Source of the DNA: Bacteroidales bacterium | GTDB taxonomy: Bacteria; Bacteroidota; Bacteroidia; Bacteroidales; P3 | DNA length: 64,000 nucleotides | NCBI GenBank assembly: GCA_017441565.1 | Contig: JAFRXG010000033.1 | Span: 9,728-73,727, forward strand | Reading direction: 5' to 3' | Shown: in pieces, positions 30,080 to 56,565 of the stretch | Position numbering within the stretch: position 1 is the first letter of the stretch | Layout: every line of letters starts with the position of its first letter | The notes under the pieces: model-generated | Databases searched by the model: none | What the model was told of the DNA's origin: nothing | What the model saw: the letters and a program-made list of their open reading frames with translations, nothing else | Made by a program: the position numbers and the translations under genes

Positions 30080-31198
30080 CTACTGCGCAGCTCTTTCAAC
30101 CGGGTTGGCATAGAGGGTGAGAAACTGCTGACGCAGTGTTTCCATACCGATGCCGTCAACCGCAGGCATTTGCGACATATGGTCGATGAAAGCCTCTTTT
30201 TGAAGAGACGTATAGTGGCCCGCATAACGCATGCCCCCATGCAGCAGGTCATACGCCACATAGTTGGTGGGCATCAAGTGGTAGCCATCACTGATGCGGC
30301 TGGTGAGCAACTGGGCCAGCTGCTCTGCCAATGCGCTGCCTCCATCGGGCAGGGAACGTAGATCGTCGGCATCGATAGGTTTGTTAAACGAAATGTATAC
30401 CTGCCCCTTGGGCGAACGGATGCCGGTGAGGATGCTCACCAGGTCCTCGCCCATTTGCTTGGTGTAGCTGCCCTGCTGACGCGTCAGGCAGACCTCGCGC
30501 ACCTTAAGGAAATCGCAGGGTTCCCACTCGTAGGATATTGTAACGGGCACGATACGCAGCGAGCTGTAGGTCTCGGCTGTAGGTCTTGAATCGTAGAGGC
30601 CTAGCATCTTGACCAACGCCACCTCGGTCTGGTCGTTGCCGTCCTTAGTACGACCGTTGCGTTGGGCTATCCACACCGACTCATGCCTATCAGCCAGCAC
30701 ATGCCTCATATACAGCGACACATGGCGGAGGTTGGTGTAGAACTCTTTGGGGCTGCCTCCCCGCTCCACCTTGAACATACGGTTACACCTGCCAATGTCC
30801 GTCACCACAGGATGGCTCATCAGGTTAGCCCCAAAGGTAATCTGAATCGGAGGGAAGCTGTGAAGATACATCACATATACCAACAGATTGGCATCCAACA
30901 CTATGTCGCGGTGGTTCGACACAAAGAGATAGTTCTGTCCAGGGGCAAGTTGCTCCACCCCTGAATAAGTGAACTGGGTTATCGTTGTGTCTATGACATG
31001 TTTGATAAGGTCATACATGATAGTGCTCTGCAGCTGTTCGATGGTCTTGATAGCCACGAAGTTTCCCTTCACCTGTTCCAATGGGGTTGAGGGGTAGAGA
31101 TAGGCTGCCACACTCTCAAACTCGGGGCTGCGGGCGATGCGTTGGAGTGCCTCACGCATCTCGCTGTCGTCATAGGGCCTTATATCGTCGAAATTCAT
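30080..31198 (-). CDS. PlsC/LPLAT-superfamily acyltransferase
   Basis: 372 aa with FVSNHRDIVLDANL (H..D block) and AQRNGRTKDG (motif-III-like). It is the last minus-strand gene after the ligase. Confidence 0.55.
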   Translation of the reverse strand: MNFDDIRPYDDSEMREALQRIARSPEFESVAAYLYPSTPLEQVKGNFVAIKTIEQLQSTIMYDLIKHVIDTTITQFTYSGVEQLAPGQNYLFVSNHRDIVLDANLLVYVMYLHSFPPIQITFGANLMSHPVVTDIGRCNRMFKVERGGSPKEFYTNLRHVSLYMRHVLADRHESVWIAQRNGRTKDGNDQTEVALVKMLGLYDSRPTAETYSSLRIVPVTISYEWEPCDFLKVREVCLTRQQGSYTKQMGEDLVSILTGIRSPKGQVYISFNKPIDADDLRSLPDGGSALAEQLAQLLTSRISDGYHLMPTNYVAYDLLHGGMRYAGHYTSLQKEAFIDHMSQMPAVDGIGMETLRQQFLTLYANPVERAAQ

Positions 31199-31287
31199 GC
31201 TTTAAATGTACTGTTTACAAGTAGGGGACCATGTTTGAAAAAAGCGTTAGTCGATTTACGCATTATTGCACATACACTTTCAGACTC

Positions 31288-32583
31288 CTAAGAGCGCAGG
31301 TCGATAAACTTGACCGGTTTGCGGCTCTTGGGAGGGAATACTATCTGCCTGATTTGTTCCGATGGGAGCACCTCAATCTCTGGAGCCACCCTGATGCGTG
31401 AGCGGAAACTATCCTTGAGAGTCTTCACCACATCAAAATCAGGGGTGTGTTCCAGTGCTATCTTCACCACCACGTCGTCGGTTCCTGCATCGTTGGTCCT
31501 CACCTCCACAACATAGTTCTCCACATAGTCGGTATTGTCCAACACATCGTTAATGGCTGGCGGATAGAGTGTGGTGCCCTTCAACTTAATCATATTGTTC
31601 TTACGGCCCAGCAGCGGTGTGAGGCGGTAGGAGTTGCGACCGCAGGGGCATTGCTCCACCCGCTTGGCAGCAATGTCACCCGTGCGGAATCTCAGCAGCG
31701 GCATACCCTCAACCCCCAACGTGGTCACCACCACTTCGCCCGACTCCCCGTCGGCCACCGGCAGGTCGTCGTCGCCTATTATCTCCACTATAATTAACTC
31801 CGGGTGTACATGGCCGCCCATGCCGTAGGGGCATTCCGAGAACGTAGCCCCCATCTCGGTCGACGAATAGGTGGCAAACAGCTGCACGTCCCATTTCTCT
31901 TTGATGCGGCGACCTAGGAGGTTGAGACTGAAATCCTGCTCGCGCAGCCCTTCTCCGATGCCTATGATGCGGCGTATGCTGCTGTTGCGATAATCTATCT
32001 GGTGCGCTTCGGCATACTGGACCAGTTTCAATATAAACGAAGGCACACACATAATCGTGTCGGGCTGAAGACGGCGTATCGTGTCCCACTGCAATTCGGG
32101 GATGCCGTTACCCACACGTATCACCGATGCCCCCAACTCGCGCAGACCGAGGAAGTACGCAAGCCCCGCCATAAAACGTTTGTCGAGCGTCGTCATCAGT
32201 TGCACGATGTCGCCAGGTCTCACACCGGCACAGGCAAAAGACTTCTTTTCATTATACGCCAGCCGCTGGAGATCTTTCTCCGTGCAGCCGAAGGTCACTG
32301 GGTCGCCCAGCGTGCCCGACGTGGTAATGTAGTCGATGATGCGCTCACGCGGGCAGCAGCGGAAGTCGTCGTTAAACAGCTGTAGGTCCTTCTTCTCAGT
32401 GAATGGGATGCGCGTAAGGTCTTCGAGGTACTTGATTTTATGTATATCAATTCCATAGCTGGAAAACATGCGCCGATAGTAAGGCGAATGAGCCTCCAAG
32501 TAGGCCAACGCATCGGCCAGCTTCGCCTCCTGAAAGCGTTTGATTTGTTCGGGGGACTGGTATTCTATGTCTGAATTCATCAT
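31288..32583 (-). CDS. phenylacetate-CoA ligase / F390-synthetase family adenylating enzyme
   Basis: 431 aa with TSGTLGDP (the AMP-binding P-loop analogue), YSSTEMG and FRTGD. Confidence 0.8.
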   Translation of the reverse strand: MMNSDIEYQSPEQIKRFQEAKLADALAYLEAHSPYYRRMFSSYGIDIHKIKYLEDLTRIPFTEKKDLQLFNDDFRCCPRERIIDYITTSGTLGDPVTFGCTEKDLQRLAYNEKKSFACAGVRPGDIVQLMTTLDKRFMAGLAYFLGLRELGASVIRVGNGIPELQWDTIRRLQPDTIMCVPSFILKLVQYAEAHQIDYRNSSIRRIIGIGEGLREQDFSLNLLGRRIKEKWDVQLFATYSSTEMGATFSECPYGMGGHVHPELIIVEIIGDDDLPVADGESGEVVVTTLGVEGMPLLRFRTGDIAAKRVEQCPCGRNSYRLTPLLGRKNNMIKLKGTTLYPPAINDVLDNTDYVENYVVEVRTNDAGTDDVVVKIALEHTPDFDVVKTLKDSFRSRIRVAPEIEVLPSEQIRQIVFPPKSRKPVKFIDLRS

Positions 32584-32586
32584 AAT

Positions 32587-32760
32587 TTGATTGTTTGATT
32601 GTTTGATTGCTTGAATAATTGGTTAGAGGTTAGAGGGGGCGGCAGCAAATTCTCAATTCTCAATTCATAAGGCGGCAGCAAATTCTCAATTCTCAATTCA
32701 TAAGGGGCGGCAGCACTCAAGCATTAACACAATCAAGCAATCAAGCAATATCTTTTATTT
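32587..32760. repeat. composite intergenic repeat, copy A (contains a 33-bp tandem duplication and TIR-like arms)
   Basis: Colinear with 35363..35515, sharing gattgcttgaataattggttag...ggcggcagcaaattctcaattctcaatt...cagcactcaagcatta.cacaatcaagcaatca..caatatcttttattt. The internal 33-nt unit ggcggcagcaaattctcaattctcaattcataa occurs at 32638 and 32671. Confidence 0.85.
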
Positions 32761-32821
32761 TTAGTAGTTAGTAACGCATAAACACATTCTTTATTATAGA
32801 CTCAAAAAAATAAATAGGGGG

Positions 32822-33667
32822 TTACCATAACTGACCCAGCCATCGAAGGAACTCGTATTTCCACCCCCGCGATTCGGGGGTGCCGTACACGTCGCTCACT
32901 CCAAAACCATGACGGCCGTGCCTATACTGCAGAAAACGGTGGCTGATGCCCTTGGCAGCCAGTGTGTCGGCCAGCATCTGGGCGTTGTGATAATCCACTA
33001 TGGGATCGTCGACACAGTTCACCAAAAATATCGGCGGGACATCCTGCGGCACCTGACGTTCTATTGAGAGCTGTTCGCGCAAATCCTTGTCATACTGGCC
33101 CCATTCACCCATCAGCCCCCTGCGCGAACGCTTGTGGACATACTCTCCCGTCATAGTCACCACCGGATATATTGCGGCCACGAAAGCCGGTCTCTGCCCC
33201 GTGGTGGTCACAGCCTGGCCTAGCACCAGATGTCCGCCAGCCGAAAAACCCATCATTCCTATACGGGCGGTGTCTATGCCATACTCTGCCGCATGGTCTG
33301 CCACCCAGCGCAACGCCTTCTGACCATCGTCATACATATCGGGGTGGCGCACTCCCCTGCACACGAGGCGGTAATGGGTGTACCACGCCCACCATCCCGG
33401 CACTCGGTACTTGAGCACAAAGGCCGATACCCCATGACTTTGAAGCCACTGGGCCACCTCTATGCCCTCGCCCATATAGTCAAGCCAGAAGTAGCTGCCC
33501 CCCGGACACACCACTACTGCTGTCCGCGACCCCTCGGTCACGTACGGTGTGATGGTCACCTTGCTGGCTGCCCCCTCAGCCTCCGGCCATAGGGGGAACG
33601 CCTGTTGTCCTTGAAGCGGCTGACCAACCAGCCAGACCAAAAGCACACAAAGCAGACTCCGCCTCAT
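32822..33667 (-). CDS. secreted alpha/beta-hydrolase (esterase/lipase fold)
   Basis: 281 aa with signal peptide MRRSLLCVLLVWLVGQPLQGQ, the nucleophile elbow GFSAGGH, and a late D and H (DDPIV, HGFG). Confidence 0.8.
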   Translation of the reverse strand: MRRSLLCVLLVWLVGQPLQGQQAFPLWPEAEGAASKVTITPYVTEGSRTAVVVCPGGSYFWLDYMGEGIEVAQWLQSHGVSAFVLKYRVPGWWAWYTHYRLVCRGVRHPDMYDDGQKALRWVADHAAEYGIDTARIGMMGFSAGGHLVLGQAVTTTGQRPAFVAAIYPVVTMTGEYVHKRSRRGLMGEWGQYDKDLREQLSIERQVPQDVPPIFLVNCVDDPIVDYHNAQMLADTLAAKGISHRFLQYRHGRHGFGVSDVYGTPESRGWKYEFLRWLGQLW

Positions 33668-34029
33668 TGTCCACCAAGTATTTTCGCCACCTCGTCGCGT
33701 TCCAGACGGCGGTAGGCGGGCGGGTGTCCCTCATCGAAAGTCACCTCGAAATACTCCTCGTCGTAGAACGACAATTTGGAATTGGTGTCGGGATTACACT
33801 CCCAATAAACAATCTGGTTCACGTCCAGATGTTTCTGTTCGCAAATCTGCTCTGCCAACGAGCGCCCAGCATAGGTAACCGAGGTACCTGGGTTGTCCTG
33901 ATACAGCTCTGTCACTATGACATAGGTCCTGCCGTCAGCCTCCCTAATCTTCAGTCCGCAGGTCGAGGGCATGTCCCACTGTCCGCGGAAAGGGAATATC
34001 TCGTCGTAGTAAGTCTCTGATACTTTCAT
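33664..34029 (-). CDS. hypothetical 121-aa protein, translationally coupled on both sides
   Basis: ATGA overlaps at both ends (34026-34029 and 33664-33667). No motif was recognised. Confidence 0.6.
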   Translation of the reverse strand: MKVSETYYDEIFPFRGQWDMPSTCGLKIREADGRTYVIVTELYQDNPGTSVTYAGRSLAEQICEQKHLDVNQIVYWECNPDTNSKLSFYDEEYFEVTFDEGHPPAYRRLERDEVAKILGGQ

Positions 34030-35315
34030 TTCTTGGCAATATTACGTACATCATCCTTTCCAAACGACTTGTTGGCCAGTGCGCGATTGCGTGGGCGGTA
34101 GGTGCCGTCTTCCATCTCGCGGGCCACCACGTTGTAAAAAAGCTTGAACATCTTCTGCTCCTGGCTCTCGGTCGCATAGAAGCTCCTCCACGCATAGTCA
34201 TACAAATCCTGCAACCGTTCGGGCGACATATGCTGGGGCTGGAACACCACCTGACCAGCATTGTAGTGGTCCCAGTCGAAATCGAAAATGCGTCCCTGCC
34301 GCAGCAGGTCGTCATAGGCCTTTGTATGAGGGAACGGGGTGAGCACGGTGAACTCCGCCAAGTCCAGGTCTATCTCGCCCAAGAAGTCGATGAGCCGCTT
34401 GCAGTCATCCTCCGTCTGGTTGTCCAATCCCAGCAGGATGGTGCCTTCCACCCCGATGCCGTAGTCGTGATAGCGTTTCACACGTTCTTTGATATAGTCC
34501 GACGTGTCGTACACAGCCTGGTAGACATACCATGCTCCTGCCTTAGAGGCAAGGTCCAGCACCACAGGGTCGTCCTCTATCGTGTGGCTAATCCATTTTT
34601 TCTTCAGGGGGGCAATAGCTTTGAACAGTTCCATCTCCCACTCCTTATTCTGGGCGAGCGAGTTGTCGACGATAAAGAGGCGGTTGTTGTCGATGGCTGC
34701 CATATCCTCCACCACCTTGTCGATGGGGCGTGGGCGGAACTTGCGACCGCCGAGATAGGAGACGGCACACGGGTAGCAGCTGAAACGGCAGCCGCGCGAA
34801 GCATGGAAGAGGTCTACCATCTGAACGCCCTTGTGGTTATAGAGGTGGCGTTTGTAGAGATCGCGTCTGCAGGGCCCCACGGTTTCGATGGGCGGCATCT
34901 GACCCATGTAGTTATACACTTTCTTGAGGTGTCCGCATCGCCAGTCTTCGAAAACCTGTTCCTGTCGCCCCTCCGACTCCCCGAGGAACACCGAATCCAC
35001 ATGTTGCACCATCTCTTCAGCATGGAGCATGGTGGAGATGCCGCCGGCCATTACCTGCTTGCCTCTGCGATGGTATTCGTCGGCTATGGCCCAACCGCGC
35101 TTCACCTGCGTGCTCAGCATCATCGAGAGTGCCACCACGTCGCAGTCGTCGTCAAAGTCTATCTCCTCCACATTTTCATCCACAAATGAGACCTCCACAT
35201 AGTCTGGCAGCGTGGCAGCAAACGCCACCGGCCCATGAGGGGGCAGGTTGAAGGTGGTCTGCCCACGCAACTTCTGCCATCGGGGGTAAATGAGTTTTAA
35301 TTTTATTCTGTCCAT
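34026..35315 (-). CDS. B12-binding-domain radical SAM protein (class B)
   Basis: 429 aa with an N-terminal Rossmann-like B12 domain (DVVALSMMLST..., MAGGI) and the CxxxCxxC cluster CRFSCYPC. Confidence 0.85.
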   Translation of the reverse strand: MDRIKLKLIYPRWQKLRGQTTFNLPPHGPVAFAATLPDYVEVSFVDENVEEIDFDDDCDVVALSMMLSTQVKRGWAIADEYHRRGKQVMAGGISTMLHAEEMVQHVDSVFLGESEGRQEQVFEDWRCGHLKKVYNYMGQMPPIETVGPCRRDLYKRHLYNHKGVQMVDLFHASRGCRFSCYPCAVSYLGGRKFRPRPIDKVVEDMAAIDNNRLFIVDNSLAQNKEWEMELFKAIAPLKKKWISHTIEDDPVVLDLASKAGAWYVYQAVYDTSDYIKERVKRYHDYGIGVEGTILLGLDNQTEDDCKRLIDFLGEIDLDLAEFTVLTPFPHTKAYDDLLRQGRIFDFDWDHYNAGQVVFQPQHMSPERLQDLYDYAWRSFYATESQEQKMFKLFYNVVAREMEDGTYRPRNRALANKSFGKDDVRNIAKK

Positions 35316-35362
35316 ATTCTTGAATGTTTGAATGCTTGATTGTTTGATTGTTTGAGTAACTA

Positions 35363-35515
35363 TTGATTGCTTGATTGTTTGATTGCTTGAATAATTGGTT
35401 AGGGGTTAGAGGTTAAAGGGGGCGGCAGCAAATTCTCAATTCTCAATTCTCAATTCATAAGGCGTCAGCACTCAAGCATTAGCACAATCAAGCAATCAAA
35501 CAATATCTTTTATTT
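35363..35515. repeat. composite intergenic repeat, copy B
   Basis: See copy A. It has 3 rather than 2 copies of ctcaatt and no 33-bp duplication. Its last 17 nt are the final codons (...IKDIV) of 35496..38522. Confidence 0.85.
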
Positions 35516-38500
35516 CCCTTCGCAACGTGCTGTCGCCTAGCAGGGCTTCGGCGGTGGCTATGGCGGTGACGGCCACACCGCACATGCCGTGCAGGTTCAC
35601 GTCCTGCCCTGTGAGGAAGAGGTTGCGCACTTTGGTACGCACTGCGAGCTGCGTCTGCATCATGTTGTTGCAGTCTTTATGGAGACCATACATGCCGCAG
35701 TGCCGGTTGCCCAGATAGTCGCGGATGGTCAGCGGCGATGAGGCCTCTACCCCTTCGACATGGCTGCGCAGGCCTGGCATCAGCACTTCCAGCAGCATCA
35801 GCACCCGGTCGACACACGCCTGCTTCCACTTCAGATAGGCTTCGCCCCTGTGTCCTATGGTGGTCGCTTCCCACTGGGCCACCCATTCGTATGTCATCGG
35901 GCATATCACGGTCATTGACTGTGCAAACGCTGGCTCCTGCTGCGAGGCCTGCATCAGGACCATGGCGCAGCGGGGCCATACATCCTCAGATGCCGCAGCA
36001 CAGTCCCACACCGCCCTATTGTCAGCGGCATAGTACAGCGGGCTGGGCCGGTGGGGCTGCGAGGAGGGTTTGAAACGCACGTATAGCTTAAAGGCCGAAT
36101 AGCTGTCGGGAGCTTCCTCCAACCGCTGACGATATGAGCGTGGGAAGGCATTCGGTGGCGACAGGGCAAGGAGGGTGTGAATTGGCAGGTCGCTCACATA
36201 GTTATCGGCCCGGTAGGTCCTTCCGGCCGACGTAAGCACATGGCCGATACGGTGGTCCTCCACCGTGAAACCCGTCACTGCCTCGTTCACCCGTATGGTG
36301 CCGCCACCGTCGCATATCATACGTGCCAGCACCTCTGCCATCTGGCTGCTCCTCTCGGCGAACTGCGCAGTCCCCTCAATATGCAATATGTTGACCAACG
36401 CATGGACATAAGCGGGCGTTTCGTCCCACACGCCCCCATATAGGGGAGCCAGATAGGATAACGCCGCCCGCAGGTCGGCATCGGATATGTAATGTTCGAT
36501 GAATCTGCCCACCGGCCACAAAAATTCCTCACTGTGGCTCAGTGGCGTATGCTCCTCGTCGCGCAAATAGAAGAGGTCTTCCTCCTGTGACAGCCTGTAT
36601 AGTGCGTCCACATAACGGCGTATGCCGTCGGCCTCATGCGGGAAGAGGTGGCTGAAATAGTCTACAAAGGCCTCACGGCCACGTGGTATGCAATAATGAA
36701 CGCCCGTAGGCGACACCACCACCTCGTCTACGCTGCCCTCGCCCGACAGGCGGAGGTCCAGCTGTCCCATGACACCCAGATAGGAACATATCCGTTCCAT
36801 CAGTCCGCCCTTCTGAAAGCCACCAAACACGTGCATTCCCGTTGCGAAACTGATGCCGCCACGCGTAAACGAACAGAGCCCGCCGCCCACTGCGTGGTGG
36901 CGTTCCAGCAGGGTCACGCGCTGCCCCTTCTTCGTCAGCAGGGCACCAACCAGCAGTCCGCCCAGTCCTCCGCCCATCACCAAAGTGGTGGGCCCGGTAG
37001 GCTGCTCATGCCTACCCACTGCCACCATCTGCCGTGTCACCGCCTCATCGCCCAAGATATGGCTACACACCTTCAGCACCCCCACCAGCACTCCCAACAT
37101 ACCGTGGGCATTGATATTCTGTCCCACCAGCAGCACATTGGGTATCTTGGTGCGGTAGTCCACCCGGCCAGCCAACCCTTTCCTCACGTCCCTTTCCAGT
37201 CCGTACATCGACCCATCGGGGGTCAGCGTATAATCACGATAGGTGAGCGGGGTGGCGGTATAATAGCTTGCTATATGACTGCCGATGCCGGGGAAGTCCT
37301 TTTCCAACGCAGCCAGCAGCCTCATCGCCTTGCGCTGTTTGAAATCCTCATAGCTGCTGCCGCGCCTGCCTGTAAGCGTGTCGTGCCACTGGGCCAGTTC
37401 GCTAGCGGACATATATGCGAGCACCACACCGCTGTCGGCCCACTGGGGATGGGGCTGATGGCAATGGTGCATATACAGATAGCCCCTCGGCCAGTCCTCT
37501 TCGGTGTACGATGCCATCTCCCACGGCGACGCACAGGCAAAGCCGTAATAGTTATGGTTCATATACGGCATGCTCTGAGGCTTGAACTTGACAAACAGCG
37601 AGAAGGCCGACGTGGTGTTTGTCATCGTGCCGATGCGCGAATGGTACACAGGGCGCAGCTCATGTTCCTCAAACCAGTCCTTCAGCTGGCTGGGATGCAC
37701 GTCGCTCACCACCACATCAGCGGGCAGCATAGTGCCGTTTTCCAGCACCACACCTTGCGCGCGTCCCCCCGAGCAGCGGACCTTCACCACACGGCTGTTC
37801 GTACGCACCGTACCCCCAGCACCGCACAGCACTTCCACCAGTGCGTCCGCTATCGTCTCGCTGCCTCCCACAATCCTGAATGCGCTGTTGTTGTAAAAAT
37901 TGGCTATGAAGGCGCAGGTGGAGAAGGGTGTCACCCCGCGCCGCGCGGCATACAACGATATGTTGCCCATCAGCACCTCTCGCAGCAGCGGGTCGCCGAT
38001 GACGGATTCCAGCACTTCGTCCACAGGTGTAGAAAACAGGCGGTACGACGGGAAATCGCCTGCCTTTGTCCGCACCTCGTCGTGGCCGTCGGGCAGACGG
38101 TAGTAGGGCGACGACTGCGCCACGCTGTCCGCCAGCTGCCAGAAGAGCCACAGCCCCTCGCGCTCATGGGGGAAACGCTCCGCCAGTGCCTCCACCATCG
38201 GCTCGTGCCCGTTGGCAAAGGCAAAACGCTCGCCTTGGAGGCCCACCACGTCATATCCCTTGGTGTCCAACCGGTCGAAGGTCAGCCGTCCTCCGATTCC
38301 AAAATAGTTGAGGTAATGCCTCAACACCTGTCCTTCGTCGAGGCTGCCCACAAAATGCATGCCCGTCTCGAACCGTGACCCCTCGCGGCTGAAGCACTGC
38401 AGACATCCACCCACACGGTGCGACTGCTCCACCACCGTCACCTCATAGCCCTCGCGGGCCAGCACGGCGGCGGTGGCCAAGCCGCCCAGTCCGCTGCCTA

Positions 38501-46643: not shown

Positions 46644-46644
46644 G

Positions 46645-46902
46645 CTATCGGGTGCGGTGTTTGGCTATGTAGTCAGCCATGACGGAGACCGATTGGAAGA
46701 TTTCTTTGCCTTGGTTGGGATCTTGCAGACGGATGCCATAGTTCTTCTCCATGAGGACTATGAGTTCGAGGGCATCAATAGAGTCGAGCCCCAGCCCTTC
46801 GTCGAAAAGAGGTGCGTCGGCGTCGATGTCGTCGGGCGTAATCTCTACCAGGTTCAGGGCTTGGATGATTTCTTGTTTGAGCTGTTGAATGAGTTCTTCC
46901 AT
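46645..46902 (-). CDS. acyl carrier protein
   Basis: 85 aa with the phosphopantetheine site LGLDSIDALE. Confidence 0.85.
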   Translation of the reverse strand: MEELIQQLKQEIIQALNLVEITPDDIDADAPLFDEGLGLDSIDALELIVLMEKNYGIRLQDPNQGKEIFQSVSVMADYIAKHRTR

Positions 46903-48680: not shown

Positions 48681-49063
48681 TGTTCGTAAAAGGGGGGATT
48701 GGACCAGACTAGCTGGTAGTTGGTGTCGAGAAAGACCTGCACGGTGCGGCCGGTGGCCAGCACTTGGTTGTCGTCGGTATTGAAGATGGTGTAATTAAAG
48801 ATGATTTTGGCTGCGTCGGTAGGCTGGTAGGCGATGGTGATAGCGGGCGTCATGCCATAGATGATGGGGCGACGGTAGTGTATCTCAACGTCGACCAAAG
48901 GTGCATAGTAGCCGGCATCGCGGATGGTGAGGTAGTCGAGCCCATAAGCACGGCCAAAGCCTTCGCGTGCGTCTTCGAAATAGAGCAGGTGATTGCCATG
49001 CCATACCAGATGCATGGAGTCGACTTCGCTAAAACGTACGGTAAGGGGCTGTGTATGGGTCAT
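48653..49063 (-). CDS. 4HBT/YbgC-type acyl thioesterase (hotdog)
   Basis: VRFSEVDSMHLVWHGNHLLYFEDAR. Confidence 0.8.
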   Translation of the reverse strand: MTHTQPLTVRFSEVDSMHLVWHGNHLLYFEDAREGFGRAYGLDYLTIRDAGYYAPLVDVEIHYRRPIIYGMTPAITIAYQPTDAAKIIFNYTIFNTDDNQVLATGRTVQVFLDTNYQLVWSNPPFYEQWKQKWLSK

Positions 49064-49100
49064 GTGGTAGGGCTTGATTAATTAACACTTAATATCTGTT

Positions 49101-49517: not shown

Positions 49518-49520
49518 GGG

Positions 49521-50381
49521 TCAGTGTGTGTCGGTTGTCCAGAAGTCAAAGAAGTTGAACCATTGGGTAGGGTATTGCCGAACCACCTGCTCGAGCTGTT
49601 CCGCATACTGGGCGGGACTGTCAACAGGTCGCACGATGATGTGGTAGTGGCGAAGCCGGGTCTTGACGGCGAAGATGGCCAGGAGGGGTACCGACTTGGC
49701 CCGCGCCAAGGCATAAGCCCCGACGGGGAAGGGTGCGGGGGCACCTAGGAAGGGGCAGAGGGTCGTTTTGCGCGAGCCGAAGAGACGGTCGGCCGGGAGG
49801 CTGACGATTTCGTGGCGGTCGAGGGCGGCATTGAGGGCAAAGATGTGGCTCATGTCGGGCGAGACCTGGATGGTGCTGATGTTGTGGCCGCTGAGGACGC
49901 GGTTGCGCTGTTCCGACACAGTGGATGTCTCACCGCCAAAGACCAGCGCGTTGAACGGTTTGTCGTGGGAGGTGAGGGTGTAGCCTGCCACCTCGTAGCA
50001 CCCCACATGGGAGCTGAGGATGACGAAGCCGCTCTCGGCATGGGCAAGGCGGTCGAAATGGTCCATGCCGTCGACGTCGACGCTGAACTGCTTGCCGGCA
50101 AAGACGGCGAAGCGGTCGAGGACAACTTGTCCGAAGCGGAAGTGGTTGCAATAGGTGAGGATGAAGGAGCGGACGAGGGAATGCCCCAGCCGTTGGTGGA
50201 AGAGCTGGTAGATGGCGCGGTAGCCTTCGCGGTTGAAGAGCATGTAGAAGGGTACCACCCATGCCATGACGGCATAGAGGACCCACAGGGGCAAGACCCT
50301 GTAGAGGCTGATGAGGGACCGCTGCATCCATGGGGTTCCGTCGGTGCGACCCGACCACTGGGTATGTGTCAGATAGGGCAA
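49521..50381 (-). CDS. LpxL/HtrB-like lysophospholipid/lipid-A-type acyltransferase
   Basis: 286 aa with an N-terminal membrane anchor, and a size and position typical of the APE-cluster LPLAT. Confidence 0.65.
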   Translation of the reverse strand: MPYLTHTQWSGRTDGTPWMQRSLISLYRVLPLWVLYAVMAWVVPFYMLFNREGYRAIYQLFHQRLGHSLVRSFILTYCNHFRFGQVVLDRFAVFAGKQFSVDVDGMDHFDRLAHAESGFVILSSHVGCYEVAGYTLTSHDKPFNALVFGGETSTVSEQRNRVLSGHNISTIQVSPDMSHIFALNAALDRHEIVSLPADRLFGSRKTTLCPFLGAPAPFPVGAYALARAKSVPLLAIFAVKTRLRHYHIIVRPVDSPAQYAEQLEQVVRQYPTQWFNFFDFWTTDTH

Positions 50382-50392
50382 GGAGGACTGCG

Positions 50393-50638
50393 TTATTTGG
50401 TGGTTTTTGACTCGATATAGTCGCAGAATTGGCTGAAGAGCTTCACGTTGGTGAGTTCCTCGGGCTTGATTTTAAAGCCGAACTTGCGCTCGACGATGAC
50501 TACGATGTCGACGAAGTCGAGACTGTCAATACCGATGTCTTCTTTGAGGCGGGCTTCGGGGGTGATTTTTTGAGGGTCTATTTCTAAATCTTCTACTAGG
50601 AAGTCGATAATCTGTTGTTCTAGTTCTTGACGGGTCAT
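50393..50638 (-). CDS. acyl carrier protein
   Basis: Start taken at MTRQELEQQ (ATG at 50636-50638), with IGIDSLDFVD. The longer ORF to 50737 runs through the repeat element. Confidence 0.85.
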   Translation of the reverse strand: MTRQELEQQIIDFLVEDLEIDPQKITPEARLKEDIGIDSLDFVDIVVIVERKFGFKIKPEELTNVKLFSQFCDYIESKTTK

Positions 50639-50758: not shown

Positions 50759-51859
50759 TTACTTCTTACTTCTTACCTCCATGATGCAGTGGCCGTGGCC
50801 GAGGTTGTCGACGATGCGTTCTACTCTGAGGCCGGCGGCAGCGATGAGGCGTTCCATGTCGGGGGTGTTGTACATGCGGCTGTTGCCGTTGGCGATGGCG
50901 GTGAAGTAGAGGCTTGTCATGGTGAGGCACAGGGAGGCGACGGGGAACCGCTGGCGGTCCCAAAGGGTCTCCATGATGAGCAGCCGGCTGTGGCTGTCCA
51001 TGACGGCGGCGGCACGAGAGAGGATGCTCACTATCTGCTCTTCGCCGAAACAGTCGAGAAACTGGCTCATCCAGATGACATCAAAGTGGCAGTGGGTGGG
51101 AAAGGGCGAAGCGGGGTCGAGAAGGTTCATGGGATGCCCCTGGATGCGGTCGGCACCGGGATGGCCGGAGACGTTCTGCCGCATGAGCTGCAACTGCTGG
51201 GGGAGGTCGATGATGGTGACCTGCACCTGCGGGTCGTGCGCCACGCACTGCAGGGCCCATCGGCCAGTGTTGCCGCCTACGTCGAGGAGAGTGGCGACGG
51301 GCTCTCGGAAGACCACCTCCAAGGCCTGGGGGAAGGAGTGGTCGGAATAGAAGTGGTCGAAGCCGAACCAGCTGCGCTGCACCTGCGGCGGGAGGCTGGA
51401 GAGGGCCTCGTAGACCGTGGGCCAGGGACCGAAATGCTCAAGCCCGACGGGACGGCCTTCGTCAAGTGACTCTTCCAAACGAAACCAGCCTTCGTAGTTG
51501 ACGTCGTGGTTGAAGTCCATATTGACTTTGACCAGAGGGTCGGCGAGCAGCATCCAGCCGGTCTTGGCGAGCAGGTAGTGCTGCTGGTCGGCGGCCAGGA
51601 TGACGGTGCCGATGGTGAGGGAGGCTTCGAGCAACACCTGTATGGCGTAGCGGCTCTTGCCGGTACGCTCGACGAGCTGCTCGAGGGTGAGGCCTCCGTC
51701 GCTGTCGCGCAGCATGTCCAGAATGCCCCATTTGACCATGATGCGCGAGGCCTGGAAGATGACCGGGCCGAAGGCTATCCACTCAGCCATCTGCTGAGCT
51801 TCACGGGCGGAGAGGGGGTCGTTTAAATATGCCTTTTCTAATGCTGGTGAGAGGTTCAT
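50759..51859 (-). CDS. class I SAM-dependent O-methyltransferase (COMT-like with N-terminal winged-helix dimerisation domain)
   Basis: LLDVGGNTGRWA (motif I) and VIWMSQFLDCF. Confidence 0.8.
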   Translation of the reverse strand: MNLSPALEKAYLNDPLSAREAQQMAEWIAFGPVIFQASRIMVKWGILDMLRDSDGGLTLEQLVERTGKSRYAIQVLLEASLTIGTVILAADQQHYLLAKTGWMLLADPLVKVNMDFNHDVNYEGWFRLEESLDEGRPVGLEHFGPWPTVYEALSSLPPQVQRSWFGFDHFYSDHSFPQALEVVFREPVATLLDVGGNTGRWALQCVAHDPQVQVTIIDLPQQLQLMRQNVSGHPGADRIQGHPMNLLDPASPFPTHCHFDVIWMSQFLDCFGEEQIVSILSRAAAVMDSHSRLLIMETLWDRQRFPVASLCLTMTSLYFTAIANGNSRMYNTPDMERLIAAAGLRVERIVDNLGHGHCIMEVRSKK

Positions 51860-51885
51860 ATATGAATGCTGATTGTGTTGTTGCG

Positions 51886-53109
51886 TTATCTACGTATCAC
51901 CAGTGCGCTGTTGGTGCCGCCGAAGCCGAAGGAGTTGGAGAGGATGGTGCGGAGGGGCATTTCCACAGTGCGAGGGGTGATGTTGAGCTTGGCGCTTTGT
52001 TCGTCGGGATTCTCGAAGTTGATGTTGGGGGCGACGAAGTCGTTCTGCATCATCAGGAGGCAGTAGACTATCTCGCTGGCCCCTGCCATCCAGCACTCGT
52101 GCCCGGTCATGGACTTGGTGGAGCTGATGAGCGCGCGCCGGCCGTGGAAGAGGTGTGCGAGGGCGATGGCCTCGTTCTTGTCGCCTTGGGGGGTGGAGGT
52201 GGCATGGGCGTTGACATAGTCGATGTCGTCGGGTGTGACGCCGGCATCGCACATGGCACGCTCCATGGCTATGACGGAGCCGGTGTCGCTGGCTTGCGAG
52301 ATGCCGCCGCCGTTGGAGGAGAAGCCGTAGCCGGCGACCTCGCCCAGTATGTGGGCACCGCGGGCTTTGGCATGTTCATATTCTTCCAGCACCAATGCGG
52401 CAGCACCGCCCGAAGGCACCAGGCCGTCGCGGTCGCGGTCGAAGGGGCGCGAGGCACGCGTGGGGTCGTCCATCCGCTTGGAGAAAGCCGAGAGGGCATC
52501 GAACGAGGCCATGCTGTAGTAGTTGGTCTCCTGCGCTCCGCCGCAAAGCACCATGTCCTGCAGCCCCTGCTGGATGAACATATAGCCCAGTCCGATGGAA
52601 TGGGAGCCGCTGGCACAGGCGGCGCTCACGGTGAAGTTGATGCCACGGAGGTGGAATATGGTGCTGAGGTTCATGTTGACCGTGGAGTTCATCGACTGGA
52701 ATATCCAGCCCGACCCCAGGAGCATGGAGTCTTTCTTCTCAGCCATGAGGTTGGCCGACTCGACCACCGCCTTAGCGGAGGAGTCGTTGCCGAAAAGCAC
52801 GCCCACCTCGTTGTCGAGCAGGTATTGCTCGTCGACTCCCGCCTGAGCGAAAGCCTCACGGCTGGCCATGAAGGCGTATTCGGCCTCTTCGGACATGCCG
52901 ACACGGAGCCGACGGTCGAGCACACCCTTCAACACGGGGTGCGGCACAATGCCTGTGAGCGACGACTGATAGCCGTAGCCGATGCGCTCGGGCTCGACAC
53001 CGATGCCCGAACGTCCTTGATATAACGACTGCCGCACCTCGTCGCACGAGGTGCCGAGGCACGACCATATTCCTATTCCGGTGATGACGACCCTACGCTT
53101 CATACCCAT
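51886..53109 (-). CDS. beta-ketoacyl-ACP synthase (FabB/FabF-like)
   Basis: VVITGIGI, VSAACASGSHS, NAHATSTPQGD and GHECWMAGA. Confidence 0.85.
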   Translation of the reverse strand: MGMKRRVVITGIGIWSCLGTSCDEVRQSLYQGRSGIGVEPERIGYGYQSSLTGIVPHPVLKGVLDRRLRVGMSEEAEYAFMASREAFAQAGVDEQYLLDNEVGVLFGNDSSAKAVVESANLMAEKKDSMLLGSGWIFQSMNSTVNMNLSTIFHLRGINFTVSAACASGSHSIGLGYMFIQQGLQDMVLCGGAQETNYYSMASFDALSAFSKRMDDPTRASRPFDRDRDGLVPSGGAAALVLEEYEHAKARGAHILGEVAGYGFSSNGGGISQASDTGSVIAMERAMCDAGVTPDDIDYVNAHATSTPQGDKNEAIALAHLFHGRRALISSTKSMTGHECWMAGASEIVYCLLMMQNDFVAPNINFENPDEQSAKLNITPRTVEMPLRTILSNSFGFGGTNSALVIRR

Positions 53110-53121
53110 GATGATTTAGTG

Positions 53122-53664
53122 TTACCACTCAATGCCCACGCGCAGGCCGATGCCCGAAGGATTGAACACCTTGGTGTTGTAAACAACTGAGCCCACCATG
53201 TCGTCCCAGTAGCTGTCCTGATATTTCATCCCTTCATAGAAGGTGCCGGTGAGCATGATGTTCACGGCGAAGTCGCGCTTGGAGCCGAAACGGACACCCA
53301 CAGCCAAATCGGCATAGGTGCCGGGGTCGTCGGAGAGGTAGGAACCCAGACGCACCTGGATGGTGGGGGTGACGGTCTTGGAATAGCCGAAGTTGTATTT
53401 CACCGCCGTGTAGACGGGCACTGCAAAGAAGTTGTCGCCACCCTCGATGCCAAAGCCGATACCGACGAAGGTGTGACCGCTGAAATAGAAGCCATGGGTG
53501 GTGGAGACACCGATGGTGGTGTTGGCATCGTCGGCCAGACGGTAGATGGAGCCTTGCTCCAGAAATCCTTGATAGCCCGTGGGGACTTTGACGGTTGTTT
53601 CCTCTTGTGCAATCATAGCAAACGACATCAGGAGCGCTGCTACGAGAAAGAATGTCTTTTTCAT
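53122..53664 (-). CDS. small outer-membrane beta-barrel protein
   Basis: Signal peptide, alternating-hydrophobic strands and a C-terminal ...GLRVGIEW. Confidence 0.6.
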   Translation of the reverse strand: MKKTFFLVAALLMSFAMIAQEETTVKVPTGYQGFLEQGSIYRLADDANTTIGVSTTHGFYFSGHTFVGIGFGIEGGDNFFAVPVYTAVKYNFGYSKTVTPTIQVRLGSYLSDDPGTYADLAVGVRFGSKRDFAVNIMLTGTFYEGMKYQDSYWDDMVGSVVYNTKVFNPSGIGLRVGIEW

Positions 53665-53721
53665 GATATTTGAACGATTTAGATGTTAATAATCAAAGGT
53701 TAGAAGTTAATGCTTTGCAAT

Positions 53722-54444
53722 TTAGTAAAGCCCACCGTTGACGGAGATGACCTGTCCGGTGATGTACGATGCTTCGGGGGAGACGAGGAAGGCGACGGCG
53801 GCAGCCACCTCGTCGGGGCTGCCGAAACGGCCCATGGGCACCATCTTCTTAAGCTCATCCTCGGGCAGCTGGCTCGTCATGTCGGTGGCTATGAATCCGG
53901 GGGCCACCGCGTTGACGGTCACCTTGCGGGGGGCCACCTCCTGTGCCAGTGCCTTGGTGGCACCTATGAGGGCGGCCTTGGCTGCCGAATAGTTGGCCTG
54001 GCCGGGAAGCCCTTTCAGTCCCGAAAGGGAAGAGATGTTGACGATGCGGCCCTGGCGGTGGGTGAGCATGTCCTTGACCAGTCGGCGGGTGATGTAGAAG
54101 AAACTGTTGAGGTTGGTGTCGAGCACATGGCTCCACTGCTCGTCCTGCATGAACACCAACAGGTTGTCCATGCGGATGCCGGCATTGTTGACCAACACGG
54201 CGATATAGTCGTCGGGGTGTTTCTCATGCCAGCTGTCCAAAGCAGACTCCACCGCGGCCTTGTCGCCCACGTCGAAGGGCAGCAGCTCCCCCACCCCGCC
54301 GTTGGCGGCGATGTCGGCAAGGGTCTGCTGGGCGGCCTGATGGTTGGACTGGTAGTTGATTATCACATGATAGCCCTCTTTGGCGAGCCGCAGCGCGATG
54401 CTGCGGCCAATGCCTCTGGAGCCTCCTGTTACCAATGCGTACAT
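53722..54444 (-). CDS. 3-oxoacyl-ACP reductase (FabG-like ketoreductase)
   Basis: [14 protein letters not shown] and YSAAKAA. Confidence 0.9.
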
Positions 54445-54482
54445 GTCTATTACTTACGTATTTAAAATGAATACACTACTAC

Positions 54483-56009
54483 TTAGTTCTTACCACCCCT
54501 GAGCATCGTTTCGACAAGGGCGATGCGGTCGTAGAAGGGGGCGTCCTCCACAAAGAGTGGCACCAGGGCGCGCACGCTGTCGTACTGGCGACGGGTGGCA
54601 GGGCTCAGCCTGTCGGCTATCTTGAGGCAGTCGGTGGCCTGCGCCAGGGCGATATACTGCACCGCCATCACCTGGAAGCAATTGTCCACCACCTGTTTGC
54701 ACAAGAGGGCGCTGTTGGTGCCCATGCTGACGATGTCCTGGTTGTCGTTGTTGTTGGGTATGCTGTGCACATAGTTGGGCATGGCCAGTGTCTGACACTC
54801 GGCGGTGGTGGAGGTGGCGGTGAACTGACAGGCCTGCATGCCGTAGTTCAACCCCAGCACGCCCATATTCAGGAATGGGGGCAGGATGCCGTTGATGCGG
54901 TCGTGGAAGAGGTAGTTGAGCTGACGCTCCGAGGTCATGGCCAGACGCACCAACGCAATCTTCACCTTGTCTTCTTCGAGTGAGATATAGTCGCCGTGGA
55001 AGTTGCCACCGTGGTAGACATTGCGCGTGACGGGGTCGACGATAGGATTGTCGCAGGCCGAGTTGAGCTCTTCCTCCAACACCCGGCGGGTATTCTGGAG
55101 CGTTTCGTAGATGGGACCGAGTATCTGGGGGGTGCAGCGCAGGGAGTAGTAGGCCTGCACCTTGTGTTTGAACACCTTCTCGTCGTTGTGGCGGCTGTCG
55201 TAGAGGGCATGCTCGCGCTTGAGGAGGCACTGGCTGCCCATTGCGATGTCGCGCATGCGCTGAGCCATCACCTGCTGTCCTTCATGGCGACGGCACTCGT
55301 TCAGCGGCTCGGACATCCAATCGTCATACGACGAGGCTATCTCGTTCATCCACACTGCCGCCAGCGTGGCCCAGTCGAGCAGCCGCTCGGCATAGTGCTG
55401 GTTGACGACGGCAATGCCGGTCATCACCGACGTGCCGTTGGTGATGGAGAGGCCTTCGCGGATGTAGACCTTCAGGGGCTTCAAGCCGCACTCCTTCATC
55501 ACCTCGGCGGTGGGACGCCACTGGCCCTGGTAGTGCACCTTGCCCTCACCGATGAGGGTCAGGGCGATATGCGCCAGCTGCACCAAATCGCCGCTGGCAC
55601 CCACGCTGCCATGTTGGGGTATAAAGGGGTAGATGCCACGGTTGATAAACTCGACGAGCAGATTCACCACATCCACATGGATGCCCGAACGGCATTGCAG
55701 CACCGTGCCCACACGCGCCAGCATGGCGGCCTTCACATATATGTCCTCCAAGGGAGCTCCGGCCCCGGTGGCATGGCTACGGATGATGTTATACTGGAGC
55801 GCGACTAAATCCTCGTCCTCCACCTTCCACTGCGCCATAGGGCCAAATCCAGTATTGATGCCGTAAATCACCTTGTCGGCCGAGAATTCTTCCAAAAAAT
55901 GATAACACCGCTCCACCTCCGCCAACACCTGCTGTGGAACTGAAAACGGCTGATTATCAAACAATATTCTATCTAATGTGTCAACTGTCAATGTATACAT
56001 ACTCGGCAA
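54483..56009 (-). CDS. aromatic amino acid ammonia-lyase (HAL/TAL/PAL family, MIO prosthetic group)
   Basis: 508 aa with GINTGFG and GSVGASGDLVQLAH (the Ala-Ser-Gly MIO triad). It is the first gene of the minus-strand locus. Confidence 0.85.
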   Translation of the reverse strand: MPSMYTLTVDTLDRILFDNQPFSVPQQVLAEVERCYHFLEEFSADKVIYGINTGFGPMAQWKVEDEDLVALQYNIIRSHATGAGAPLEDIYVKAAMLARVGTVLQCRSGIHVDVVNLLVEFINRGIYPFIPQHGSVGASGDLVQLAHIALTLIGEGKVHYQGQWRPTAEVMKECGLKPLKVYIREGLSITNGTSVMTGIAVVNQHYAERLLDWATLAAVWMNEIASSYDDWMSEPLNECRRHEGQQVMAQRMRDIAMGSQCLLKREHALYDSRHNDEKVFKHKVQAYYSLRCTPQILGPIYETLQNTRRVLEEELNSACDNPIVDPVTRNVYHGGNFHGDYISLEEDKVKIALVRLAMTSERQLNYLFHDRINGILPPFLNMGVLGLNYGMQACQFTATSTTAECQTLAMPNYVHSIPNNNDNQDIVSMGTNSALLCKQVVDNCFQVMAVQYIALAQATDCLKIADRLSPATRRQYDSVRALVPLFVEDAPFYDRIALVETMLRGGKN

Positions 56010-56020
56010 AATATATTTTG

Positions 56021-56028
56021 CAAAGATA
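56021..56028 (-). promoter_or_regulatory. candidate -7 box (TATCTTTG on the minus strand) at the head of the pigment locus
   Basis: The plus strand reads caaagata, 12 nt upstream of the start at 56009, which implies a very short leader. Confidence 0.4.
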
Positions 56029-56103
56029 CATATTTTTTTCTATATAATAAAAAAAAGTGCCGCCAATGGCGACACTCTTCATACATACAAATAACTACTA
56101 TTC

Positions 56104-56565
56104 TTAGTTGAGTTTGTAACGGATGCCCAGAGCACCGCCCCAGCCGAAACCACGGTAGCCGCAGTTATCGGGGAGCAGGAACTCGAACTGAGGACGCACG
56201 TCGGCGGTCAGCTGGAAGGGGAAGTTGTGGAAGTTGAACTCGATACCGAACTGTCCGACAACAGCGAGACCCAGACCGTGGTTGCCGCAGTAGCCAACAT
56301 TGACACCGGGGCCGGCATACCAGCCAAACCAATCGTCAACGAAGTTGCCTTTCCACTGATAGATACCGCAGAGGTTGAAATAGTTGTCGGTCGAGCGGCT
56401 GACACCCAAATCAAGTTCCAGACGGTTCGAGCCTAAGCCCTTCTGGAAGGAGACCTCGGCACCAAGGGCGGTACCACCACCAAAACGGAGACCAATAGCA
56501 TCCTGTGCATTAGCTGCAAAACCAAGGGCAAAAACTGCCACTAAAACTACGAAAACTTTCTTCAT
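56104..56565 (-). CDS. small outer-membrane beta-barrel protein
   Basis: 153 aa with signal peptide ...GFAANAQ, Gly/aromatic-rich strands and a terminal ...GIRYKLN. Confidence 0.6.
   Translation of the reverse strand: MKKVFVVLVAVFALGFAANAQDAIGLRFGGGTALGAEVSFQKGLGSNRLELDLGVSRSTDNYFNLCGIYQWKGNFVDDWFGWYAGPGVNVGYCGNHGLGLAVVGQFGIEFNFHNFPFQLTADVRPQFEFLLPDNCGYRGFGWGGALGIRYKLN

Follow-up and report, generated by a model that had tools for sequence, protein, structure and literature searches.

A probable flexirubin-type aryl-polyene locus in a Bacteroidales genome

We analyzed a 64,000-nucleotide stretch of DNA from an uncultured Bacteroidales bacterium of the ruminant gut (positions 9,728 to 73,727 of contig JAFRXG010000033.1, GenBank assembly GCA_017441565.1; referred to below as the window), and conclude that it probably carries, at a probability of roughly 0.6, a flexirubin-type (flx) aryl-polyene (APE) lipid pathway whose architecture is typical of gut and rumen Bacteroidales. 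Domains were called by Pfam and NCBIfam profile scans of the open reading frames (ORFs) in the window, with the NCBIfam cut-offs used for equivalogs, and we assign the locus to the flexirubin type because it passes five curated NCBIfam flexirubin models, those for FlxA, FlxB, FlxJ, LolA2 and FlxY (Table 1). ORF listing and translation place 25 ORFs in one unbroken, densely packed chain on the minus strand, running from position 56565 down to 30080; the spacing between the genes ranges from -28 to +238 bp, and a 4-bp overlap is found at four junctions. An original prediction, made from the sequence alone, had described this co-directional chain and had read it as an aryl-polyene/flexirubin-type type II polyketide synthase locus with an ammonia-lyase-derived aryl starter; the layout is as described, and the flexirubin models bear out the class. 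The profile scans recovered nearly all of the domains that it named (lyase, ketosynthases, acyl carrier proteins (ACPs), short-chain dehydrogenase/reductase (SDR), thioesterase, methyltransferase, acyltransferases, family 2 glycosyltransferase (GT2), LolA and MMPL), and its gene inventory was nearly complete, having overlooked a protein of 117 amino acids (aa) that resembles EamA and ArnE/ArnF (44004-44357) and an ORF of 121 aa (33664-34029). It had also proposed two small outer-membrane β-barrels, and in this case the signal peptides are present but the barrel finds no profile hidden Markov model (HMM) support, as neither protein has a Pfam match even at E ≤ 10 or any match in NCBIfam.

The starter genes can be compared with characterized enzymes. 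The ammonia-lyase matches Pfam Lyase_aromatic with an E-value of 1.6e-156, its ASG triad is readable in the segment HGSVGASGDLV, and its ORF extends upstream of the ATG to a TTG at 56009. In Chitinophaga pinensis, FlxA is a tyrosine ammonia-lyase whose activity has been shown, and FlxY is a 4-coumarate-CoA ligase that prefers 4-coumarate 121-fold over cinnamate (Schoner et al. 2014, PMC3992019). The PaaK/F390-type ligase of the window, which had been listed as an addition of unestablished role, is the canonical FlxY, the orthologue of this biochemically characterized enzyme. Likewise, the CrtI-like flavoprotein, which had been regarded as a non-canonical addition, is found at the flxV position, immediately behind flxU, which is also the arrangement in C. 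pinensis and Flavobacterium johnsoniae; it is a tandem fusion with similarities to CrtD, CrtI and carotenoid isomerases that all fall under the respective cut-offs, and the single FlxV of a Lentimicrobiaceae contig matches its N-terminal half better than the other (39% versus 28% identity). Half of the oddities claimed for the locus are canonical flx components. The other proposed additions, a radical S-adenosylmethionine (SAM) enzyme and a secreted esterase, are indeed absent from the reference clusters, and so is an extra PlsC-like acyltransferase, but the esterase and the acyltransferase turn out to be standard in the Bacteroidales version, as described below.

Comparison with flexirubin and aryl-polyene reference clusters

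The genes of the locus follow the order A-B-C-J-D-E-F-H-I-L-M-N/O-(SMR)-LolA2-S-T-U-V-...-Y, which is collinear with C. pinensis flxA-flxY as given in Table S4 of PMC3992019; flxJ is displaced relative to that order, and LolA2 corresponds to the gene listed there as flxQ. The reference clusters were those of C. pinensis DSM 2588 (Cpin_1853-1877; MIBiG BGC0000839) and F. johnsoniae UW101 (Fjoh_1075-1110). The window shares with them the FlxA and FlxY starter logic, the type II set of ketosynthase and chain-length factor (KS/CLF), ACP, ketoreductase (KR) and dehydratase, and the flxA-flxY gene order, as well as a set of accessory genes that encode FlxJ, an LpxL-like acyltransferase, a thioesterase, LolA2, a GT2, the MMPL-acyltransferase FlxU and the RetSat/CrtISO-type FlxV. 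The FlxK halogenase, the FlxP polysaccharide deacetylase, FlxW (peptidase C45-type), the FlxX phosphopantetheinyl transferase, FlxG and FlxR of the references have no counterpart here, whereas the radical SAM enzyme with its 121-aa partner and the PlsC-like acyltransferase after FlxY occur here and not in the references. Two positions are occupied differently: a BD-FAE esterase stands in place of FlxW, and the ArnE/F-like membrane protein, which is present in 58 of 80 related loci, in place of the FlxP deacetylase. In addition, FlxV is duplicated and fused, and FlxN is fused to FlxO. Alignment of this 755-aa protein shows that its FlxN half keeps the catalytic Cys-His-His residues and that its FlxO half lacks all three. 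The 189-aa protein at the FlxL position has no HMM match in Pfam or NCBIfam, E ≤ 10 included; the C. pinensis protein at the corresponding position is annotated as a 'condensing enzyme' (Table S4, PMC3992019).

The core genes of APE clusters, as defined in the legend to Fig. 1 of bioRxiv 10.1101/2020.12.19.423268, are also present, namely KS and CLF, two ACPs, a KR, two hotdog dehydratases of the ApeI and ApeP types and a transporter of the resistance-nodulation-division (RND)/MMPL kind. So is a lipid-anchoring set that consists of the LpxL-like FlxE, FlxT together with the C-terminal PlsC domain of FlxU, and LolA2, the counterparts of ApeD, ApeJ (which provides glycosyltransferase and acyltransferase functions) and ApeL, respectively. 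These components and a thioesterase are shared with the apeA-R clusters of Escherichia coli CFT073 and Xenorhabdus doucetiae. The starters differ, as APE clusters use 4-hydroxybenzoate activated by the acyl-ACP synthetase ApeH, whereas the window encodes the lyase and CoA ligase that would supply tyrosine-derived 4-coumarate. The methyltransferase is named FlxJ here and ApeB in the APE clusters. The FlxV-type flavoprotein, the radical SAM enzyme and the secreted esterase are found here and not in APE clusters, and ApeG (COG4648) and ApeN (DUF3261) of APE clusters were not found here.

Related loci share a Bacteroidales-type architecture

Related loci were collected by scanning GTDB species representatives, which yielded at least 551 confirmed loci, and the best 80 were mapped using tblastn and ORFs. 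More than 1500 homologues of FlxU were found, the majority of them in uncultured Bacteroidales. Its best match among the GTDB species representatives is only 54% identical, so that the species of the window is not itself one of these representatives. The best 80 loci come from rumen, deer and gut Bacteroidales MAGs (metagenome-assembled genomes), Segatella bryantii DSM 11371, S. albensis DSM 11370 and Prevotellaceae KH2P17. They are collinear in the order FlxC-J-D-E-F-H-I-L-M-N/O-SMR-LolA2-S-T-U-V-(rSAM-121aa)-esterase-FlxY-PlsC, where rSAM denotes the radical SAM gene, and the conservation as a unit in host-associated Bacteroidales that had been anticipated is thus observed. Components were counted over the 50 related loci that cover FlxU through FlxY. 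The secreted esterase and the PlsC-like acyltransferase after FlxY are standard parts of the Bacteroidales-type flx locus, as they occur in 47 and 45 of these loci, respectively. FlxV was found in 41/50, and the radical SAM enzyme with its 121-aa partner, present in 26, marks a sub-lineage of the Bacteroidales-type loci.

FlxV occurs in related genomes as one copy, as two separate copies or as a FlxU-FlxV fusion. That the two proteins are fused in some uncultured Bacteroidales, in polypeptides of 1600-1676 aa, suggests that FlxU and FlxV may act together. The cultured rumen species S. bryantii (DSM 11371; NZ_BPTR01000001.1, 2382017-2405247) contains a reduced version of the locus, and no gene for FlxY, FlxV, FlxI, FlxL, LolA2 or the PlsC-like protein was detected in the 23 kb examined; S. 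albensis DSM 11370 has a fuller set, in which FlxY is not detectable.

A radical SAM enzyme and a small partner protein form a conserved module

In the window, the interval between flxV and flxY is occupied by the radical SAM gene, the 121-aa ORF and the BD-FAE esterase gene instead of FlxW. The radical SAM enzyme contains a CxxxCxxC motif and belongs to a tight clade, in which all of the 120 best-scoring homologues listed reach at least 81% identity; in a library of representatives clustered at 50% identity, the next radical SAM clusters lie at 65%, 53% and then ~35%. Across the Bacteroidales loci the median identity is 85% for this enzyme, 71% for its partner and 45% for FlxU. The partner, which is 118-123 aa long, is encoded together with the radical SAM enzyme in 32 of 33 loci. 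Six genomic contexts were examined, one of them that of the window; in all six the radical SAM gene is situated within an flx/APE locus, and in five it immediately follows FlxV. The Lentimicrobiaceae locus has the order FlxU-FlxV-rSAM-119aa-esterase-FlxY, identical to that of the window.

The module also occurs in the spirochaete Treponema primitia (AEEA01000071.1), where the radical SAM enzyme and the partner are 82% and 68% identical to the proteins of the window, and FlxA and FlxE only 35% and 25%. There, an in-frame fusion unites the 121-aa partner and an FlxJ-type methyltransferase in a 486-aa ORF with the radical SAM gene directly upstream, an arrangement that links the radical SAM module to methylation. 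The T. primitia cluster comprises an APE/flx-like set with a lyase, ApeP-like, LpxL-like and ApeI-like proteins and two ACPs; apart from the radical SAM module, its proteins are 25-44% identical to those of the window. No such radical SAM gene is present in the E. coli, C. pinensis and F. johnsoniae reference clusters, and our literature search turned up no radical SAM/B12 module described for aryl polyenes. We considered whether the radical SAM gene had been acquired recently by horizontal transfer and rejected this, as its GC content at third codon positions (0.72) is within the host range of 0.59-0.83.

The fold class of the enzyme is clear from its AlphaFold2 model of moderate confidence, in which Foldseek recognizes a predicted B12-type Rossmann domain and a radical SAM barrel. 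The predicted combination of an N-terminal Rossmann domain and a CxxxCxxC barrel resembles that of the cobalamin-dependent methylases CysS, TsrM and MgmA and of AprD4, to which the identity is only 12-17%; unlike these proteins, the enzyme of the window forms a clade of its own and is paired with a 118-123-aa protein. The partner has no Pfam match, and although it is modeled with a mean predicted local distance difference test (pLDDT) score of 81, its best Foldseek match in the PDB is no better than E 0.012 (template modeling (TM) score 0.3). As a tentative assignment, the radical SAM enzyme might catalyze a cobalamin-dependent C-methylation of the carrier-bound aryl polyene alongside FlxJ.

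Dialkylresorcinol genes and the lipid anchor

The absence of DarA and DarB from the locus, which had been noted in the original prediction, extends to all related loci examined: no KAS-III (DarB-type) or DarA-like protein is encoded in the 64-kb window, in the adjoining 10 kb on its left side (which brings the DNA covered here to ~74 kb) or in the 80 related loci. Over the same ground there is no match to FlxW/Peptidase_C45, the protein that has been proposed to join the polyene to the dialkylresorcinol (DAR) (Schoner et al. 2014, PMC3992019). A tblastn search of the window and 86 loci using an E. coli FabH query also gave no match; it was run with no positive control and therefore carries supporting weight only. 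Extra ORFs of 330-380 aa in related loci were inspected as DarA/DarB candidates and rejected, since they are unrelated insertions, among them genes for a sigma factor, a DNA methylase, an ATPase and secreted repeat proteins. In a Lentimicrobiaceae metagenome contig (positions 378-4998), genes for a BtrH_N/DUF4872 peptidase, an LpxL-like acyltransferase and an ABC transporter lie directly upstream of FlxU and resemble the darH, darI and darJ genes in the dialkylresorcinol locus of C. pinensis; DarA/DarB may lie further upstream. We found nothing specific in the literature on flexirubins or aryl polyenes in Bacteroidales, or on DAR genes in Prevotella or Porphyromonas.

The best available model for the role of the anchor genes, by analogy, is the APE lipid of X. 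doucetiae, in which an ester bond links the APE acid to O-6 of an N-acetylgalactosamine (GalNAc)-1-phosphate-glycerol lipid whose sn-2 chain is a second conjugated polyene built on the second ACP (bioRxiv 10.1101/2020.12.19.423268). This lipid is assembled by the LpxL-like ApeD and the glycosyltransferase/acyltransferase ApeJ, and is exported by LolA-like and RND proteins. Counterparts of the whole anchor and export set are present in the window, namely two ACPs, FlxE, FlxT with the FlxU PlsC domain, LolA2 and the MMPL domain, and they are joined by a third acyltransferase. A lipid-linked sugar intermediate is hinted at by several similarities: the closest NCBIfam similarities of FlxT are AglJ, PpgS and ArnC (all under cut-off), an ArnE/F-like protein is encoded nearby, and the secreted esterase resembles PaeX and AxeA1, that is, carbohydrate acetyl-esterases. 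By this analogy, we lean toward an anchor of the kind found in the APE lipids of Xenorhabdus, a glycerolipid or glycolipid, over a dialkylresorcinol one. To our knowledge, full product structures have been solved only for flexirubin, which is a dialkylresorcinol ester, and for these Xenorhabdus lipids.

Alternative readings of the locus and of its radical SAM enzyme

Several points weigh against the interpretation developed above. The pathway and its product are predicted from the genes of an uncultured MAG, the FlxV assignment follows from position and enzyme family, and the putative outer-membrane role of the two small secreted proteins has no homology behind it. In C. pinensis, moreover, the darAB genes (Cpin_6850, Cpin_6851) lie ~5000 genes away from flxA-flxY (PMC3992019), so a locus that lacks them may still belong to a genome that has them, and 'resorcinol' clusters have been reported among the biosynthetic gene clusters of red-complex oral species such as Porphyromonas gingivalis. 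As for the radical SAM enzyme, its scores for the Pfam B12-binding and Radical_SAM models are both under the gathering thresholds, neither it nor 41 relatives reach a curated NCBIfam cut-off, its model has a moderate pLDDT of 69, and its best Foldseek match (E 8e-13, TM score 0.62) is AprD4, a dehydratase that does not methylate.

That the genes are merely a normal fatty-acid synthase next to a histidine-utilization lyase, which is the least of the alternatives, is highly improbable. The SDR does exceed one generic FabG cut-off (302.7 versus 273 bits), and the lyase has a sizeable HutH score (411.6 bits), but the latter is under the cut-off of 539, and the FlxA and FlxB equivalogs score higher and pass. 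The ketosynthases reach 336-376 bits against FabB and FabF cut-offs of 494-630, and the ACPs 38-58 bits against an AcpP cut-off of 70, TIGR00517 being passed by neither; among the ACP models only NF006617 is passed, and it describes a 'phosphopantetheine-binding protein' merely at the subfamily level. No FabD, FabH, FabI, hutU or hutI was found among the ORFs scanned across the window, and the genes are bundled with those for LolA2, an MMPL exporter, a GT2 and FlxY. Both the housekeeping fab and the hut readings that the original prediction had named as possible refutations are answered by these scores. Less easily dismissed is a true flexirubin, in which the acid of the same polyene would be joined by an ester bond to a dialkylresorcinol, with the darA/darB genes for the latter located outside the locus as they are in C. 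pinensis. The distance of darAB from flxA-flxY in that organism, the passing of five flexirubin-specific models, the darH/I/J-like genes beside the flx genes of the Lentimicrobiaceae relative and the oral 'resorcinol' clusters all speak for it; the lack of KAS-III and DarA genes in ~74 kb around the locus and in the 80 related loci, the replacement of FlxW, which is found in both reference clusters, by the esterase with or without the radical SAM module, and the additional PlsC-like acyltransferase speak against it, and on balance we regard it as unlikely.

For the radical SAM enzyme, the alternative is a radical dehydratase, a rearrangement enzyme or another redox enzyme that acts on the sugar or lipid anchor, with the partner as a substrate adaptor. 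AprD4, its closest structural match, is a 1,2-diol dehydratase acting on an aminosugar and is also the top match in a sequence search of the PDB, which returned marginal matches only; BchE and HpnJ, which are among the best generic HMM similarities, are not methylases either, and the position of the gene between those for FlxV and the esterase places it among the genes for the anchor and for export. However, AprD4 is followed in the Foldseek results by MgmA, MiaB, CysS and TsrM, with E-values for the series from 8e-13 to 1e-7, so that the cobalamin methylases among them are also significant matches, and at a pLDDT of 69 the structural matches cannot rank methylase against dehydratase. The in-frame fusion of the partner to an FlxJ-type methyltransferase in T. 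primitia, directly downstream of the radical SAM gene, likewise argues against a non-methylating enzyme, which we consider somewhat less likely than a methylase.

Proposed pathway

On the reading as a flexirubin-type aryl-polyene lipid pathway, orthology to the characterized enzymes predicts that FlxA deaminates tyrosine to 4-coumarate and that FlxY activates it to 4-coumaroyl-CoA. Domain content and the E. coli and Xenorhabdus APE systems suggest that the starter would then be loaded on one of the two ACPs and extended with malonyl units by FlxC, FlxI, the fused FlxN-FlxO KS/CLF and FlxL. FlxB would reduce each β-keto group and FlxF and FlxS would carry out the dehydrations; with no enoyl reduction, the result would be a conjugated polyene, whose aryl head FlxJ may methylate. 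The chain would probably not be released as a free acid, but moved to a membrane anchor by FlxE, the C-terminus of FlxU and the extra PlsC-like enzyme, a process in which the GT2, the ArnE/F-like membrane protein and the secreted esterase may also take part. The MMPL domain of FlxU, LolA2 and the two small secreted proteins would carry the product to the outer membrane. In the weakest step of the scheme, the radical SAM enzyme and its 121-aa partner are envisaged as an oxygen-independent tailoring module confined to anaerobes.

Gene inventory and surroundings of the locus

The 25 genes are listed in Table 1. The ORF of the ACP at the FlxD position reaches 50737, beyond the start called on the identical contig. 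A scan of 29.5-36 kb for promoters and terminators gave counts no better than those of shuffled sequence, the sigma-70 consensus being inappropriate for Bacteroidota.

Table 1. The 25 genes of the locus, from the first of the chain to the last (coordinates are those of the window)
Feature	Coordinates	Strand	Basis
Small secreted protein, putative outer-membrane, 153 aa, signal peptide; first gene of the chain	56104..56565	-	ORF; also on identical metagenome contigs
FlxA, tyrosine ammonia-lyase dependent on methylidene-imidazolone (MIO), 505 aa from ATG	54483..56000	-	FlxA_rubin_TAL (NF053541), 839.5 bits vs cut-off 700
FlxB, SDR ketoreductase (FabG-like)	53722..54444	-	FlxB_rubin_SDR, 403 bits vs cut-off 340
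Small secreted protein, putative outer-membrane, 180 aa, C-terminal GIEW	53122..53664	-	ORF and signal peptide
FlxC-type ketosynthase, Cys-His-His	51886..53109	-	Pfam ketoacyl-synt N and C domains; catalytic residues by alignment
FlxJ-family SAM methyltransferase	50759..51859	-	FlxJ_fam_MTase, 567.3 bits vs cut-off 560 (marginal); Pfam Dimerisation2-like and Methyltransf_2
ACP, FlxD position, 81 aa as called on identical contig	50393..50638	-	Pfam PP-binding
FlxE, LpxL-like (ApeD-like) acyltransferase	49521..50381	-	Pfam Lip_A_acyltrans, E 1.9e-11; position as flxE
FlxF, hotdog dehydratase (ApeP-like), 138 aa	49101..49517	-	Precomputed PF22817 ApeP-like on identical contig; weak FabZ match
FlxH, 4HBT-type thioesterase	48653..49063	-	Pfam 4HBT_2, E 4e-14
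FlxI-type ketosynthase, Cys-His-His	47559..48680	-	Pfam ketosynthase domains; catalytic residues by alignment
FlxL-position small protein, 189 aa	46959..47528	-	Kept at same position in 50 related loci
ACP, FlxM position	46645..46902	-	Pfam PP-binding; NF006617, 87 bits vs cut-off 70
FlxN ketosynthase (residues 1-400) fused to FlxO CLF-like domain (401-755)	44376..46643	-	Pfam ketoacyl-synt, Ketoacyl-synt_C, Ketoacyl-synt_2
EamA/SMR-type membrane protein, 117 aa, ArnE/ArnF-like	44004..44357	-	Pfam EamA, E 4.9e-9; ArnF, E 6e-13, under cut-off
LolA2, periplasmic lipid carrier	43303..43917	-	LolA2_flexi, 149.4 bits vs cut-off 125
FlxS, hotdog dehydratase (ApeI-like)	42901..43296	-	Weak Pfam FabA and PKS_DH_N; counterpart in related locus ApeI-like
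FlxT, GT2, polyprenyl-phosphate-sugar synthase type	42149..42904	-	Pfam Glycos_transf_2, E 7e-24
FlxU, MMPL/RND exporter with C-terminal PlsC-type acyltransferase (HQSHLD motif)	38519..42109	-	Pfam MMPL and Acyltransferase
Tandem-fused pair of FlxV-type (CrtISO/RetSat family) flavoproteins	35496..38522	-	Two Amino_oxidase/NAD_binding_8 units
B12-binding-type radical SAM enzyme (CRFSCYPC motif)	34026..35315	-	Weak Pfam B12-binding and Radical_SAM
Radical SAM partner, 121 aa	33664..34029	-	ORF; co-occurrence with radical SAM gene
Secreted alpha/beta-hydrolase, BD-FAE/acetyl-esterase type, GFSAG nucleophile motif, signal peptide	32822..33667	-	Pfam BD-FAE, E 1.8e-18
FlxY, 4-coumarate-CoA ligase (PaaK/F390 type)	31288..32583	-	FlxY_rubin (NF053551), 700.2 bits vs cut-off 520
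Extra PlsC-like acyltransferase, 372 aa; last gene of the chain	30080..31198	-	Pfam Acyltransferase, 25.8 bits vs cut-off 23

The predicted Bacteroidales host is confirmed by proteins of the window that are identical to 'Bacteroidales bacterium' MAG proteins MBQ9864172-MBQ9864212, and the neighboring C-terminal sorting domains of the type IX secretion system (T9SS) fit Bacteroidota. The secreted proteins that carry these domains are encoded at 1607-4312, 14318-15166 and 20428-22584, and two of them are paralogous (356 and 364 aa). The window further encodes a 1770-aa alpha-2-macroglobulin-like protein (4485-9797) and a protein of the 2-phosphosulfolactate phosphatase (ComB) family (18271-19002, plus strand), which is under the equivalog cut-offs and adjoins a region (18999-19661) that weakly matches an LpxE-like phosphatase. 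On the same strand as the cluster and immediately upstream of it is a 286-aa ORF with a GTG start and low GC content (0.46) at 56950-57810 (minus), which has no Pfam or NCBIfam match and is called as a gene on identical contigs. The GC skew flips within the co-directional cluster, from about -0.10 to -0.16 at 36-42 kb to +0.12 to +0.22 at 44-52 kb; the cumulative GC-skew minimum is near 42 kb, and dnaA is located ~7 kb outside the left end of the window.

Significance for Bacteroidales and other anaerobes

The cluster itself is not new, as NCBI curated Flx models exist and published surveys already describe a flexirubin 'gene cluster cloud' that spans five of the six Bacteroidetes classes analyzed; the cluster type is widely present in public genomes. 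Aryl-polyene or flexirubin-like clusters have been reported in oral Prevotella, and aryl-polyene clusters have been flagged repeatedly in oral biosynthetic gene cluster surveys of Prevotella and relatives. In agreement with the original prediction, which had called the product of such loci uncharacterized, oral-microbiome surveys describe this product class as uncharacterized or severely understudied, one of them explicitly for aryl polyenes. The remaining interest, which we judge to be moderate, lies in the Bacteroidales architecture, in the anchor question and in the undescribed module of radical SAM enzyme and partner, which among the clusters checked is found only in those of anaerobes.

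Gut and rumen Bacteroidales hold a stable and distinct architecture that combines the flexirubin starter with an extra acyltransferase, has an esterase in exchange for the deacetylase and is devoid of DAR-coupling genes, and about half of these loci, plus unrelated anaerobes, have the dedicated radical SAM module. We put forward, with more reserve than for the methylation assignment, that the radical SAM enzyme and its partner may define an unrecognized anaerobe-specific subclass of APE lipids, spread over Bacteroidales, Lentimicrobiaceae and Spirochaetota with more than 80% identity. Its chromophore or anchor would be tailored by an oxygen-independent radical reaction of the cobalamin type, most likely a C-methylation next to that by FlxJ, and the Bacteroidales product would be a DAR-free polyene glycolipid or glycerolipid in the outer membrane of bacteria that are abundant in the rumen and gut. 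If followed up, the locus would offer a way to determine the structure of this Bacteroidales pigment-lipid, and a way to a new radical SAM reaction as well.

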